Positions 39,001 through 45,000 of a stretch of 64,000 nucleotides of DNA are shown here, piece by piece. Numbering within the stretch: the first letter of the stretch is position 1; each line of letters starts with the position of its first letter. The position numbers are program-made. The stretch is from a virus (lineage: Duplodnaviria > Heunggongvirae > Uroviricota > Caudoviricetes). The stretch lies in IMG/VR virus record IMGVR_UViG_2880378312_000006. One strand, given 5' to 3'.

Positions 39001-42000
39001 CTGGCGTTCGAAGAAAAGCATGGTTCCCAGGTTGATTTAATTTTTCGTTTTCTTGATCACGCCTTTGCAACCGGCGTGCTCGGGTAAAAGAGGTTACTGA
39101 TGCGTATAGAGTTTGTTTTGCCTTACCCGCCGACGGTGAACACCTACTGGCGACGTCGTGGCAGCACATATTTTGTATCAAAAGCCGGTGAGCGTTATCG
39201 CCGGGATGTGGCACTTATTGTTCGCCAGCAGCGGCTGAAATTAAACCTGTCCGGAAGGCTGGCGATAAAGATTATTGCAGAGCCACCGGATAAGCGCCGT
39301 CGTGACCTGGACAATATCCTGAAAGCACCACTGGATGCGCTGACGCATGCCGGACTTCTCATAGACGACGAGCAGTTTGATGAAATCAATATTGTGCGCG
39401 GCTAGCTCGTTTCTGGTGGGCGGCTGGGCGTGAAGATTTACAAAATTGAAAGTGAGTGAGCATAAATATGATATACCCGGAAATTACAGGCAAAAGCGGT
39501 GAGCATTTACGCCTGAAAACGCTGGAAAGTGTCTGGATCCAGGGGAAACTGCGTATGTGGGGGCGTTGGTCGTATATTGGCGACGGTAAGACGGGAAATA
39601 TGTTCAACCAATTACTGACCTCTAAAAAGCTGACAAAAACGGCAATTAACGAGGCGCTCCGGAGGATGAAAAAAGCGGGTCTGGACAAACCTGAACTTGA
39701 GGCTTTTTTGCGGGATATGATCAACGGCAATCAAAAAAGCTGGCTGGCACATTGTACCGATTCAGAGGCGTTAATAATCGATAGGGTTATTGGTGAAGTA
39801 CTGGCAGGTTATCCCGGGCTGCTCAATGTTCTGAGTCAGCGTTATGTGGGGCGGGGGATGACTAAGCGCAAAATGGCTGAATTGCTGAATGATGCACATC
39901 CGGAATGGAGTTTAAGAACCTGTGAAAGACGCATTGAGCATTGGCTAAAGGTGGCAGAATTTATTTTGTACAAACCAATGGTTATGGCTTTTGGTATAGA
40001 GAAAAAAGTTATTGCTTTTTGACGTAAAAACTGCTTCAATTCCGGTAAGCTTCGCAAAGCTGTACCGCGAGGCGAATAGCAGACATGGACATTTGAAAGA
40101 GCCCGCTTTTTGCGGGTTTTTTTATGACTGAAAAACGGCACGGGGCGTTAAACGCGCTGGTGGTTGCTAATACCGGTCTTTCAACTTGCTGGCTTTTTCG
40201 ACAAGAGTTATTGGTATGTCACGTTAACCGGAAAAGGGAAAAAGACATGCTAAAACAGCAGGATATGACAGAAACCGCCAGAGTGGTGTTTAATGAATTA
40301 AGCGTTACCGAACCGGCGACAGTCGGGGAGATTGCGCAGAATACTTACCTTTCACGCGAACGCTGCCAGTTAATACTGACCCAGCTGGTTATGGCGGGTC
40401 TGGCAGACTATCAGTGCGGTTGTTACAGACGCATTCAGTCCTGAAGGCTTTTTATTTGTGGTAAATGGGCGGCTGGTGGGGGGGGCGGCACCTGTCAGTC
40501 CTTTGCTTATGTGTTGATGATAATTTACCTTTTGGGGCTATAATTGAGCTAACCAATTGCTAATGAAAGTAAAATTATAATGGCTGTTGTCTGTTCAGTT
40601 ATCATGGTTTGCTCCCCAATTAATATTTTTCTTGAAAAGGATACGTTGTCACTTAAGCCAGGCTCAGTCGTTCTGGCCACCAAATGCATCAGGGAGCTTT
40701 TCCTTATGCATTATGGCAAAGTTAAAATTGTCGATATAAGCGAATCCGTCGTAAGTCAATATCTGGAAAGTCAGCATAAGCTGACGAGGACTCGTCTGAC
40801 TGACATTCCGCTTTACCTGTTGCTGGAACCCAACAATCCTGCGTTGGCTGCGGCTTTAATTACCAGCCAGGGATTTTCCGGAGAGGTCACGGATATGTTT
40901 CTTATGATGGCCTGCCTGTCTCTGTTTGAAACAGATGAACGGATGTCATTGTTTTTAAGTGGATGTTTATCCAGCATAAGTGCCAAAGTCAGGGCGATAA
41001 TTCAGACAGATATATCAGCAAGCTGGACGCTTGGTGCGATTGCTCTACAGTTGCATATGAGTGAGAGTTTGTTAAAGACAAAACTGAAAAATGAAGGGGG
41101 CATGTTCAGTCGCTTGTTGCTGGAAGAGCGGATGCGTGTTGCTGTAAATATGTTATGTTCCCGGTATGGATATGGACAGGCTGTAGCAGAAAAATGTGGT
41201 TATTCAAGCCGGTCCTACTTTATTTCTGTATTTCACCGCTATTATGGCTTCCCGCCAGACAGATATGTATCCAGGCAAGGGCTTGATTATTGATTTTCAT
41301 CTGATTATTATTTTTTGGCTCGGCCCTTTAGCTCAGTGGTGAGAGCGAGCGACTCATAATCGCCAGGTCGCTGGTTCAAATCCAGCAAGGGCCACCATCA
41401 CAAACCGCCATTAGCTTATCAGGAAGAGCAGACGACACCATAACAGGGTTGTTGGTGCGGGGCCGGGTCCCCGATGGCGGTCCATTATCGGTATTCTGCG
41501 TTGTTAGCTCAGCCGGACAGAGCAATTGCCTTCTAAGCAATCGGTCAGTGGTTCGACTCCACTACAACGCGCCACACTTATTTTCCAGGCTCGCTTCGGC
41601 GGGCCTTTTTTGTATCTGCGCCACGCCCGGCGCATACCAACCACAGAGCCTTTCGGGGGTGAGCTTACGGAGTGGTCAGTGTGACTTTCTCTGTGGGCAG
41701 ATCGCTCCCGGGCGTTGGCTCACCCACCCAAAGGAACGTCACGATGTTTGGAATCTTCAAAAAGAAAACCCGCAGAGCGGCAACGGAAATTAAAAAGTTT
41801 GAAAAACGCGATCTGGCACAGGTGGTGATTAACGCCGCATACCTGGTGGCCTGTGCAGATGGTGAATGTGAGGCATCCGAGAAAGCGAAGATCGAACAGG
41901 TACTGCGTAATCAGCCTGCGCTGTCCGCGTTTACGTCAGAAATTAATGCGATTAGCGCAACCATTATCGGTCAGCTGGATACGAACTTTAAAACTGGTCG

Positions 42001-45000
42001 TCGTGCGGCGTTACGTGAGATTGAGGATGTGAAACACGATACGCGTGAAGCGGAAGATGTGCTGGATGTGGCGGTGGCCATTGCGGAGGCAGACGGCGAA
42101 ATTGAGCCGGAAGAGCGCAAGGTGCTGGAAGAGATTGCCGGTGTTCTGGGTCTTCGTCTGGAGAATCACCTGTGACGGTAAAACTGCGCCTGGCTGTGGC
42201 TGCACTCCTGCTGTTTCTGGTGGTGATGGTGGATTTCACCAGCAGAATCATGTCGGTGCTGGCGGATGGGGTGCTGGTCTGCGGCATTGTGGTATTGCTG
42301 TGGCCGGTGATAAAAAGAAACAGCCTGCATAATGCTTGATTTTTTTGTTTGCTGTTTATTAAAAACACTTCTGCATGGTGAATCCCCCTGTGCGGAGGGG
42401 CGATCAGCAACCAGGTATATGGGATAATCGCGGATTCAGGTGCTGATACTGAATTCACCGGGAGGCACCCGGCACCATGCTTTGCCACAAAAGTGTTGTT
42501 TCTGTTTTTCTCAAACTATCATCGTTATCCCTTTATTTCCGGCTGCGCATGGCGCGGCTTTTTTTTACGACCAGCCACTGGCAGATGGTCATCCTGTGAT
42601 TTGATTCCGGTTCCGGCTTTTTAACTCTGTTCCTGTACACGGGAGAAATTCGATGTCGATTAAACATTATGATGTTGTCAGGGCGGCGTCGCCGTCAGAC
42701 CTTGCGGAAAAGCTGACACACAAACTGAAAGAGGGCTGGCAGCCGTTTGGTAGTCCGGTGGCCATAACCCCTTATACCCTGATGCAGGCGATTACAGCAG
42801 AAGGTGATGTGGTGGTCAGTGGTGCAACTGAGCCGGATTGGTACTACGTCATCGTACTGGCCGGGCAGTCCAATGCCATGGCTTACGGTGAAGGGCTTCC
42901 GCTGCCGGATTCATACGATGCTCCGGATCCGCGCATTAAACAGCTGGCGCGCCGCAGTACAGTGACGCCGGGTGGGGCTGCCTGCAGATATAACGATATT
43001 ATTCCGGCCGACCACTGCCTGCATGATGTGCAGGATATGAGTACGCTGAATCATCCGAAGGCAGACCTGAGCAAAGGGCAGTACGGCTGTGTCGGCCAGG
43101 GGTTACATATTGCCAAAAAACTGCTCCCGTATATCCCGAATAACGCGGGGATCCTGCTGGTACCATGCTGTCGTGGTGGTTCGGCATTTACCCAGGGCGC
43201 GGAGGGGATATTCAGCGAGTCCACGGGGGCCAGCCAGGATTCGGCGCGCTGGGGTGTGGGTAAACCGTTATATCAGGACCTGATTGCGCGCACCAAAGCT
43301 GCATTACAGAAGAACCCGAAAAATGTGTTGCTGGCGGTGTGCTGGATGCAGGGAGAGTTTGACATGAGCGCCGCCACCCACGCACAGCAACCTGCGCTGT
43401 TTACAGCCATGCTGACACAGTTTCGTGCTGACCTCTCCGTGTTTAACGCGCAGTGCCATGGTGGCAGTGCTGCAGATGTGCCGTGGATTTGTGGTGACAC
43501 GACGTATTACTGGAAAAATACATACGCTACCCAGTACGACACCGTGTACGGCGGGTATAAAAACAGGGAGAGTGAGGGCGTTTATTTTGTGCCCTTCATG
43601 ACAGACGGTAACGGCGTCAATACCGCCACTAACGCGCCGGCAGAAGATCCGGATATTCCGGCATCAGGATATTACGGTGCGGCATCGAGAACGAATGGAA
43701 ACCAGGTATCATCAAACCGCCCGACACATTTCAGTTCATGGGCGCGCAGGAGCATTATTCCGGATCGTCTGGCAACCGCTATTCTGAACGCAGCCGGGCG
43801 CACCTCAGCCTTCATCAGTGGTAAGGCACCGGAAATCAAACCCTCGCCCGGCGGCAACACGCCATCGGGTCCGTCTGCAGATACGTCCGTTCGCACAATC
43901 TCCCTGCTGCCGGCAGCCGGAGAGGCTGCTGCGCAGGGCTGGAGCATTAAGGATGGCGGAATTCAGTTGTCAGATGGTGTATTTAAGATCACCAGGCAGA
44001 GCAATAAAACCTGGTCCCTGACGCATCCGGTGGATGACGCAATTACCCTGCTGACACAGGGCGGCAGACTGACCTGTAAGTTCCGCCTGTCAGGCGCACT
44101 GACCAACAATCAGTTCGGGCTGGGGATTTATCTGTATACGGACGCTCCCGTTCCTGATGGTGTGGCGATGACGGGTACCGGTAATCCGTTCCTGATGTCG
44201 TACTTCACTCAGACCACTGACGGCAGAGTGAATCTGATGCATCACAGGAAAGCCGGAAACACGAAGCTGGGGGAGTTCGGCGATTACGGTAACGACTGGC
44301 AGACGCTGGAGCTGGTGTTCACCGCCGGCAGTGCCACGGTTACTCCGAAACTGAATGGAGTGGCTGGCCCGGCATTCCAGGTTATAAAAGACAGTCTGAC
44401 ACTGGGACTGAATGCGCTGACGCTGACGGATGTTACAAAAAATGCAGCGTATGGCGTTGAGATAGAAAGTCTGATGCTGGAGATAAATGCACCGGCAGCA
44501 TAATAAAAAAAGCCAGCGACTGACCTGAAAAAGAAGACGCTGGCTAAAAGGCCTTATATGTTTGTAGAGACTTATTTTTCACAGACAGCAATGATGCCTG
44601 TCAATATATTATCAATATGCGGATTGTTTCAGTTACAGATGCTTTATTAAGGAAAAAAACAGCCAGCACTGACTTTCGGTGGAGAGGTGCTGGCTCAGAA
44701 GGATAGTTGGATTTCACATGATACTTATGCCTGGCGGTATATTTTCTGACAGACAGTGACGGGTGTTGTCAAGATATTGTGTCATTTATAACCTGAATCA
44801 GGGGGTGGCCGGAATGTTATCTGGCATTTTTAGCAGAGCCTGAATGCCATAATCACGGCTCCCGGCGTTGGCCGTCAGTGGGTGACACTGGCGGCTTTTT
44901 TGTTTTTCTTTACTTTCATTTTCTGTCGGCGGTGACGGAGACATACATCAGATGGAAAAAATCACAACAGGTGTGTCATACACCACGTCAGCGGTGGGGA

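Follow-up and report, generated by a model that had tools for sequence, protein, structure and literature searches.

A TerB-family and DUF3927 gene pair with a structured leader in the stx position of the Escherichia coli O157:H7 prophage Sp11

A toxin-free cassette in the stx position

The stretch of viral DNA analysed here (IMG/VR record IMGVR_UViG_2880378312_000006, Caudoviricetes; 64,000 nucleotides (nt), hereafter the window) carries, among the late genes of a lambda-like phage, the gene pair tciA-tciB, encoding a TerB-family protein and a small membrane protein of the DUF3927 family. Positions 41300-42700 match E. coli O157:H7 genomes at 100% identity, those of strains Sakai and EDL933 among them, and in Sakai the corresponding location is annotated as 'prophage Sp11, lambda-like phage'. 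An initial annotation of the window had recognised in this region the gene order of Shiga toxin (Stx)-converting phages, i.e. Q-like gene, terminator, transfer RNA (tRNA) genes with CAU and UCU (Arg) anticodons, cargo, NanS-p-type esterase, holin and endolysin. Every one of these elements is present, although ECs_2192 and a gene for an AraC-like regulator intervene between the terminator and the tRNAs. The interval 41575-42652, on which that annotation centred, holds in addition to the gene pair two terminator-like hairpins, a small RNA (sRNA) of the STnc100 family and a structured leader RNA.

Comparison with the Stx2 prophage of the same strain, Sp5, defines the limits of the cassette. The left flank (41318-41622, comprising ileZ through argO and a shared hairpin) is 87% identical to Sp5, with homology stopping at 41622, and the right flank (42355-42480), the Sp5 counterpart of which lies directly after stx2B, is 74% identical; homology resumes once more at the start of the esterase gene. 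The non-homologous cassette between these flanks, of ~730 bp, is exactly tciA-tciB in Sp11 and stx2AB in Sp5, confirming that the cargo occupies the stxAB position. The hairpin that closes the conserved left flank is found in both Sp5 and phi296, whilst the right flank begins with the STnc100 sRNA, which starts 5 nt past the tciB stop codon in Sp11 and in Stx2 phages has been placed 75 nt downstream of stx2 (PMC12370729). As the initial annotation had reported, no stx-like open reading frame (ORF) is present in the window (best tblastn match with Stx2A and Stx2B, E 0.12 over 27 amino acids (aa)); the region therefore possesses the late gene order and homologous flanks of an Stx phage, and lacks stxA and stxB.

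The contents of the slot vary among other prophages, in line with the comparison that the initial annotation had proposed. In phi296 the same two flanks almost abut and the slot is empty; in phage 434 it contains tciB without tciA, together with a 247-aa polytopic membrane protein with no Pfam match and a 62-aa membrane protein (L005, 2612-3844; loci compared are cited by L number); and in other phages it is occupied by IraM or TolA-like genes. Because the cargo differs in this way among phages, the slot is best described as a cargo hot spot, and tciA-tciB of Sp11 as an accessory ('moron') cassette in a variable slot between the late tRNAs and the STnc100/esterase region. In the sense reportedly given to the term by Juhala et al. 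in 2000, a moron has its own promoter, its own terminator and a composition unlike that of its neighbours; for tciAB a downstream terminator is present (42541-42559), a consensus scan returned no sigma-70-like promoter, and the GC content is 50-57% as against 47-57% in the neighbouring genes. Public databases already annotate both the gene pair and its location, and the pair is a widespread and known cargo; the novelty implied by the initial annotation is accordingly not sustained, the genes being annotated in Sakai and homologous to tciA and tciB of phage P1.

The TciA and TciB proteins

TciA (ECs_2190; 'TciA/TerB-like protein' in the Sakai annotation) is a full-length, cytoplasmic member of the TerB family without membrane segments. 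Over residues 31-138 it matches Pfam TerB (PF05099; 53.4 bits, cutoff 24.4, E 3.7e-14), and residues 1-143 of 143 match PHROG 632, 'tellurite resistance' (1e-68); it also contains conserved acidic residues and two ADG motifs. A phmmer search aligns TciA residues 15-137 with residues 21-144 of the 153-residue solved structure of Klebsiella TerB (PDB 2JXU; E 2.9e-7). It is on this homology that the fold assignment rests, because an AlphaFold2 model computed from the single sequence, without an alignment, was too poor to be informative (mean predicted local distance difference test (pLDDT) 59, predicted template modelling score (pTM) 0.26). The TerB-fold protein of the initial annotation is thereby upheld, with its length corrected from 144 to 143 aa. 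A terZABCDE operon of the TerC/TerD type is absent around tciA, the neighbours of which are tRNAs, the DUF3927 gene, the sRNA and the esterase gene.

TciB (ECs_5731; 'DUF3927 family protein' in RefSeq) matches Pfam DUF3927 (PF13064; 62.3 bits, cutoff 25, E 4.3e-17) and, over residues 1-54 of 54, PHROG 1470, 'TciB-like' (4e-30), so that profile searches place both proteins in their families above the respective cutoffs. A hydropathy profile places two hydrophobic segments near residues 5-20 and 26-47, and the GTG start codon of tciB overlaps the TGA stop codon of tciA as GTGA; the two-helix membrane peptide of 55 aa with overlapping stop and start, as first described, is thus borne out. Within the WP motif of the DUF3927 family P45 is invariant in 13 aligned sequences and W44 alternates with F, the FP form also occurring in some IMG/VR variants, whilst D21, D32 and G33 are almost invariant. 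The family is tiny: clustering at 50% identity leaves 109 representatives in a set of 1.84 billion proteins. A natural TerB-DUF3927 fusion ('Rosetta stone') was sought in this set and rejected: 224 close clusters and the 109 representatives are all stand-alone, and three longer matches (P0128, P0170 and P0172) proved to be frameshifted or chimeric. Among 37 tciA alleles synonymous diversity (pS) is 0.28 and nonsynonymous diversity (pN) 0.011, i.e. pN/pS is 0.04, and for tciB pN/pS is 0.33; as both ratios are low, each gene is maintained as coding sequence under purifying selection.

Distribution in E. coli and its close relatives

Of 5426 complete E. coli genomes, 802 (~15%) carry the tciA-tciB pair with at least 80% of the query covered, the median number of matching places being six in genomes with any match to the pair, and 2033 indexed assembly blocks contain TciA in identical form. 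Decaying copies of tciA were also observed among the IMG/VR loci: in the set L029, L077, L103, L083 and L115 three are truncated at residue 45, one shows a stop read-through and one a 1-nt deletion after codon 2, a picture that fits the multi-copy state in genomes of enterohaemorrhagic E. coli (EHEC).

A query with the single TciA protein returned only relatives of 96-100% identity. The close relatives counted here are 80 IMG/VR loci. In 72 of these 80 tciB is retained and joined to tciA by GTGA, as in Sp11 (a few copies carry truncations or frameshifts), and in 58 there are tRNAs within 700 nt upstream of the pair; the type of Q and the presence of the AraC-like gene vary. Where enough downstream DNA is available the esterase gene comes next after the pair in 48 of 55 relatives, five going straight to the holin gene, and it is absent after the pair in phage Evi, phage P1 and the virulent phages. 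Since the flanks vary, the pair is not an obligate part of an esterase operon, an arrangement with a known function in all related phages that had been put forward as a contrary outcome. The position in the late operon ahead of the holin and endolysin genes, and in phage Evi directly before S, might suggest an accessory to lysis timing, by which the pair would tune the holin or the membrane potential; however, in phage P1 and in the N4-like and jumbo phages the pair maps to early regions or regions rich in tRNA genes, a long way from the lysis genes, and we regard such a role as very improbable.

Homologues in other phages

A total of 131 phage records contain homologues of TerB. The gene immediately after that for TerB encodes a DUF3927 protein in phage P1, the N4-like phage Pollock, jumbo phages of Erwinia and Salmonella, Pantoea phage LIET2 and Pseudomonas phage Nican01, where the DUF3927 ORF is unannotated (60 aa, E 1.4e-8; L014, 1935-2117). 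Pseudomonas phage AF has instead an unannotated and unrelated 73-aa ORF for a single-pass membrane protein, with a GTG start on the TerB stop codon (L008, 1932-2153), and in phage Ebordelon a homologous 67-aa 'membrane protein' is encoded 5 nt 3' of the TerB gene. Vibrio phage MS02 carries a TerC-family gene (3.6e-41) just upstream of its TerB gene (L009, 378-1397) and Vibrio phage K480 a gene for a Na/Ca exchanger (2.9e-27) 480 nt downstream (L015, 2424-3440), contexts that hint at a link of phage TerB proteins with membrane cation transport.

In phage P1 the reading frames of tciA, tciB and tciC overlap by 1 nt, and this copy of the pair is situated inside the C1-controlled ban operon. The three names are said to have been given by homology in the P1 genome study of 2004. 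The authors of the Pollock report state the role of the pair to be unknown.

The tciA-tciB pair was observed in or beside tRNA clusters in four unrelated phage types. Its tRNA neighbours are Ile(CAU)/Arg in Sp11, Asn/Thr/Gly in JLK-2012 (L001, 4792-5786), Asn/Thr and Ile(CAU) in phage P1 (L003, 2116-3776), and Trp/Cys together with Tyr/Gln/Ile/Met in jumbo phages (ChrisDB, L007, 886-3277; L108-L111). This association may reflect either a shared accessory region or a functional link.

The pair is carried by strictly virulent phages (N4-like and jumbo). A further explanation is that TciA would be an anti-defence decoy, i.e. that it mimics host TerB and, with TciB, disables a membrane-linked defence such as phage inhibition by Ter. 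Such a function would accord with the presence of TerB homologues in many virulent phages, often in early regions, and with the variability and frequent loss of the tciABC region in P1-like elements (PMC9603915), and with the phage inhibition by ter operons and their TerC-TerB core complex (PMC12054061). Yet the hosts of P1, N4-like and lambdoid phages are without ter operons, a decoy would have no need of its own conserved membrane partner, and the databases and literature searched contain no anti-defence annotation or experiment; we therefore consider this explanation unlikely.

A structured leader RNA precedes tciA

DNA conservation between Sp11 and the jumbo Erwinia phages reaches ~100 nt upstream of the tciA start codon, and one stretch within it, ending in the ribosome-binding site, is perfectly conserved. 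The conserved leader (41617-41743) can be divided into a 5' hairpin, P1 (41618-41633), a strand A of sequence CCACAGAG (41641-41648), an anti-Shine-Dalgarno element CCUUU (41649-41653), a strand A' of sequence CUCUGUGG and the Shine-Dalgarno (SD) sequence AAAGG (41730-41734). The motif is conserved down to the jumbo Erwinia and Salmonella phages; an exact-pattern scan found it in at least 120 IMG/VR contigs, and in 201 of 201 occurrences read it is followed by a TciA-type ORF.

Two mutually exclusive pairings can be drawn for this region. In the first, a long helix pairs CCUUU with the AAAGG of the SD sequence, and the same 5' strand has an alternative pairing; in the second, A and A' form a helix of 8 bp that crosses the SD-occluding helix and shows compensatory variants in four lineages. 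The A-A' helix was read directly from the sequences, the 3' strand of the jumbo-phage leaders being offset by one column in the MAFFT alignment. Covariation is seen in four of the five pairs of the 5' hairpin. When 39 distinct sequences are aligned by fitting to the model, 91.8% of cells pair, compared with 32-52% when the partners are slid, double changes occur in 13 pairs as against 6.8 ± 1.5 in shuffles, and compensatory change is seen at six of the ten pairs that make up the SD-occluding helix; because this alignment leans towards the model, the counts are to be read as supportive and not as conclusive. Compared with 200 shuffled sequences, the Sp11 leader has the better fold in 198 cases (z-score -2.73). 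Of seven representatives, five have the SD-occluded fold as their lowest-energy structure; for the Sp11-type and type-2 leaders this fold is 2.2-3.6 kcal/mol less stable than the minimum. On the simplest reading of these sequences, the leader would be a two-state translational gate for accessory genes within the late transcript.

No Rfam family matched the leader at E <= 0.1 in a scan of 7.5 kb, and a scan of 211 nt at E <= 10 gave only chance-level matches on the leader and partial matches on the upstream terminator hairpin; a literature search for the leader sequence found nothing. That it might be a degenerate tRNA was considered and rejected, there being neither an ARAGORN call nor a match to the Rfam tRNA model. 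A covariance model of the leader (R1) finds diverged paralogues 5' of genes for antirepressor (Ant)-like proteins, between the endolysin gene and Rz. The copy in the window matches over the full model length (37.3 bits; E 7e-7 in 147 kb, 1.9e-9 locally), with GGGUGA/UCACCC replaced by GAUGA/UCAUC, and paralogues are also present in the Stx2 prophage Sp5 (L004, 11682-11819) and in other prophages (L021, 10297-10437).

Neighbouring features of the late region

The features of the region are collected in Table 1. The Q-like gene also matches Phage_antitermQ (5.9e-8) and PHROG 753, 'anti-termination protein Q-like', and is followed by a 13-bp hairpin and U-run (-18.2 kcal/mol, RNAfold), which was read from the sequence, the pattern scan for terminators not having listed 40094-40124. 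ECs_2191 matches the NCBIfam YdeO and GadX models, both below their cutoffs, and is probably PsrB (z2104, O island OI-57), an identification taken from the literature; PsrB controls acid resistance and type III secretion (PMC10877973). In the argN remnant the acceptor and T arms are recognisable, the anticodon arm is diverged and has a 3-nt insertion, and ARAGORN makes no tRNA call; 19 of the 80 close relatives have kept an intact argN. The score of the STnc100 match may be compared with the RF02076 gathering score of 47. Two further ORFs, one antisense (41988-42488) and one of 31 aa within the STnc100 sRNA (42332-42427), are without family support and were dismissed as chance ORFs.

The gene pchB, encoding a PerC-family activator of the enterocyte-effacement locus (LEE), was also noted in Sakai Sp11 (L002, 15711-16025), ~6.3 kb 3' of tciA; with pchB in the same prophage, Sp11 carries several regulatory cargo genes besides tciAB.

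Table 1. Features of the Sp11 late region, in window coordinates
Feature	Coordinates	Strand	Evidence or remark
Q-like late antiterminator gene ECs_2193	39456-40022 (annotated start 39468)	+	DUF1133 3.7e-105
Strong intrinsic terminator, tR'-like	~40094-40124	+	~72 nt 3' of Q stop
ECs_2192	40247-40444		PHROG 331, function-unassigned family
AraC/GadX/YdeO-like regulator ECs_2191, Psr-type	40580 (or 40706)-41293	+	HTH_AraC 2.9e-13
tRNA(CAU), ileZ-type tRNA-Ile2 (Sakai ileZ5)	41322-41397	+	ARAGORN; Rfam tRNA 72.5 bits
Degenerate remnant of argN (UCG) tRNA	41398-41497	+	Aligns with argN of Sp5 and phi296
tRNA-Arg(UCU), argO-type	41498-41574	+	ARAGORN; Rfam tRNA 67.3 bits
Terminator-like hairpin and T-run	41587-41612 (hairpin 41587-41606)	+	8 pairs (scan); -14.6 kcal/mol
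Structured tciA leader	41617-41743	+	Conservation, covariation, folding
tciA, ECs_2190, 143-aa TerB-family protein	41744-42175	+	Pfam TerB, PHROG 632, PDB 2JXU
tciB, ECs_5731, 55-aa two-helix membrane protein	42172-42339	+	DUF3927, PHROG 1470
STnc100-family sRNA (related to PasD)	42344-42516	+	Rfam RF02076 104.7 bits, E 1.1e-22
Terminator-like hairpin and T8 run, 5' of esterase gene	42541-42567 (hairpin 42541-42559)	+	8 pairs; -12.9 kcal/mol
NanS-p-type sialate O-acetylesterase ECs_2189	42653-44503	+	DUF1737, SASA, DUF6645
Class II holin	44952-45158	+	Phage_holin_2_1 7.3e-33
DUF1327/YdfR	45160-45507	+	DUF1327 5.5e-46
Endolysin	45558-46091	+	Phage_lysozyme 1.5e-24
Diverged paralogue of tciA leader	46230-46367	+	5' of antirepressor-like ORF 46362-46931

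Expression and proposed role

The sigma-70 consensus scan found no promoter-like sequence between 41607 and 41744, and terminator-like hairpins stand on both sides of tciAB. By analogy with stx2, dependence of the pair on read-through from the late promoter is plausible, and to this extent the Q-dependent late expression proposed in the initial annotation may be retained.

The same observations bear on two explanations in which the pair benefits the lysogen. In one, tciAB would be a lysogenic-conversion stress pair, expressed in the lysogen and conferring resistance to tellurite, Zn, Mn or oxidative stress. Membership of TciA in the TerB family, an annotation of 'tellurite resistance' that itself derives from homology, the link of ter operons to Te, Zn and Mn resistance (PMC12054061) and the Vibrio phage homologues beside TerC or near a cation exchanger are all consistent with such a function. 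It is difficult to reconcile, however, with a locus that has no promoter-like site and a terminator directly upstream, or with strictly virulent carriers, which have no lysogen to benefit; moreover the minimal tellurite-resistance unit is TerC-TerD and not TerB (PMC12054061), and a complete ter island is already present in O157:H7 (PMC2241611), so that we hold this explanation, too, to be improbable. In the other, the pair would be an abortive-infection cargo protecting the lysogen population, with the membrane peptide as killing effector and the TerB protein as sensor. Pores could be formed by a small membrane protein that has two helices and conserved acidic residues, the slot between Q and S is a cargo hot spot, and PADLOC-DB 2.0 returns a single match for TciA, to the candidate system PDC-S48; this match is nevertheless far below significance (E 0.005, 13.9 bits), TciB has none, expression in the lysogen would be needed from a cassette with no promoter found and terminators on both sides, and the same pair occurs in virulent phages, all of which make abortive infection quite unlikely. 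The suggestion of the initial annotation that the pair is a stress or abortive-infection cargo for the lysogen is thus disfavoured by its occurrence in virulent phages and in the C1-repressed operon of phage P1, and by the lack of any PADLOC system; abortive infection counts among the least supported of the options.

The explanation that we prefer, with a probability of roughly 0.4 for the whole, is that tciA-tciB is a lytic-phase inner-membrane accessory module, expressed by late read-through and gated by its leader. Under this proposal Q-modified polymerase would read through from the late promoter and transcribe tciAB; the leader would gate translation of tciA by switching between an SD-occluded and an SD-free fold; TciB would act as anchor or partner of TciA on the cytoplasmic side of the inner membrane, in parallel with TerB and TerC; and the resulting complex would serve the lytically growing phage by keeping the infected cell's inner membrane stable or insulated, the insults warded off perhaps being DNA entry by superinfecting phages or pore-forming colicins. 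A location at the inner membrane is suggested by the recurrent pairing of TerB with a membrane protein, usually with translational coupling, and benefit to the phage and not to the lysogen by virulent carriage, the repressor-controlled operon of phage P1 and the absence of a promoter between the terminators. Membrane insulation or superinfection exclusion is favoured, with modest confidence, because ter operons, for which a TerC-TerB core complex has been described, have phage-inhibition and colicin-resistance phenotypes (PMC12054061) and because phages have been proposed by Aravind's group to use Ter components against superinfecting phages (PMC7824862).

Several points weigh against this proposal. 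Late expression is poorly timed for superinfection exclusion when set against the N4-like phages and phage P1, in which the pair is placed early. The late promoter downstream of Q was not located by consensus, for which reason the Q dependence is argued from stx2, and, as the promoter scan covered the sigma-70 consensus only, the pair may have a weak promoter of its own. Physical interaction of TciA with TciB is deduced from adjacency only, with no natural fusion in the 109 DUF3927 representatives, and the TerB genes of phages PMBT3 and phiM5 have no adjoining membrane ORF. A CRISPR interference (CRISPRi) screen of phage P1 found tciA, tciB and tciC to be non-essential (PMC10695390), and mentions of TciA, TciB, DUF3927 or ECs2190 in the literature searched are at the level of annotation, with no experiment.

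A broader reading can be offered more tentatively, and we would sooner doubt than assert it as a whole: that TciA-TciB is a self-contained inner-membrane module of undescribed mechanism, such as cation-dependent membrane insulation or superinfection exclusion, ranging over phages, both temperate and virulent, that infect Enterobacteria, Pseudomonas, Pantoea and Erwinia, and that the leader represents a new class of two-state cis-regulatory RNA, controlling accessory genes within late phage transcripts and found in lambdoid and jumbo phages and also before the Ant-like genes of lysis cassettes, including those of Stx2 phages.

As first stated, the tciAB finding adds nothing new, and the leader RNA is the only fresh item and the most useful by-product of the analysis. 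The module, present in ~15% of complete E. coli genomes and often in several copies per EHEC genome, has nevertheless had no more than a homology-derived name for 20 years, and its role would show what non-toxin cargo is expressed by Stx-like prophages on induction. Should the leader gate the translation of accessory genes in late transcripts, including those of Stx2 phages, this would bear on the timing of prophage cargo expression after induction.

Comparison with known systems

One close parallel to the locus is the stxAB cassette of Sp5/933W, which occupies the same slot, downstream of Q, tR', ileZ-argN-argO and the shared hairpin and, as in Sp11, upstream of STnc100 and nanS-p. The Sp11 cassette differs in its unrelated and toxin-free cargo, in the presence of ECs_2192 and the AraC-like gene between Q and the tRNAs, and in the degeneration of argN.

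The TerB proteins of terZABCDE operons (IncHI2 plasmid R478; Klebsiella pneumoniae; 2JXU) belong to the same domain family as TciA over nearly its whole length, and have acidic ADG-type motifs in common with it. Whereas they are encoded inside a seven-gene operon with TerC, TerD and TerZ, TciA is phage-borne and stands alone with a 55-aa membrane partner.

Phage P1 has the pair in the same order as Sp11, with overlapping frames and tRNA genes nearby, its TciA being 41% identical over the full length and its TciB 58% identical over residues 21-51. In P1, however, the pair belongs to the early, C1-controlled ban operon and not to a late operon, and tciA is without the structured leader; P1 also encodes TciC, a 35-aa single-pass peptide, whilst no comparable ORF follows tciB in Sp11, where the next ~170 nt are STnc100 and the 31-aa ORF at 42332-42427 is unrelated to TciC.

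Finally, the tciA leader may be set beside other SD-occluding 5' leaders, i.e. riboregulators, RNA thermometers and the refolding mRNAs of the hok type, in which, as here, an upstream strand pairs with the SD sequence. Unlike these, it is without an Rfam family, and it is found only before tciA and the Ant-like genes of lambdoid and jumbo phages; its mutually exclusive A-A' helix suggests two states.

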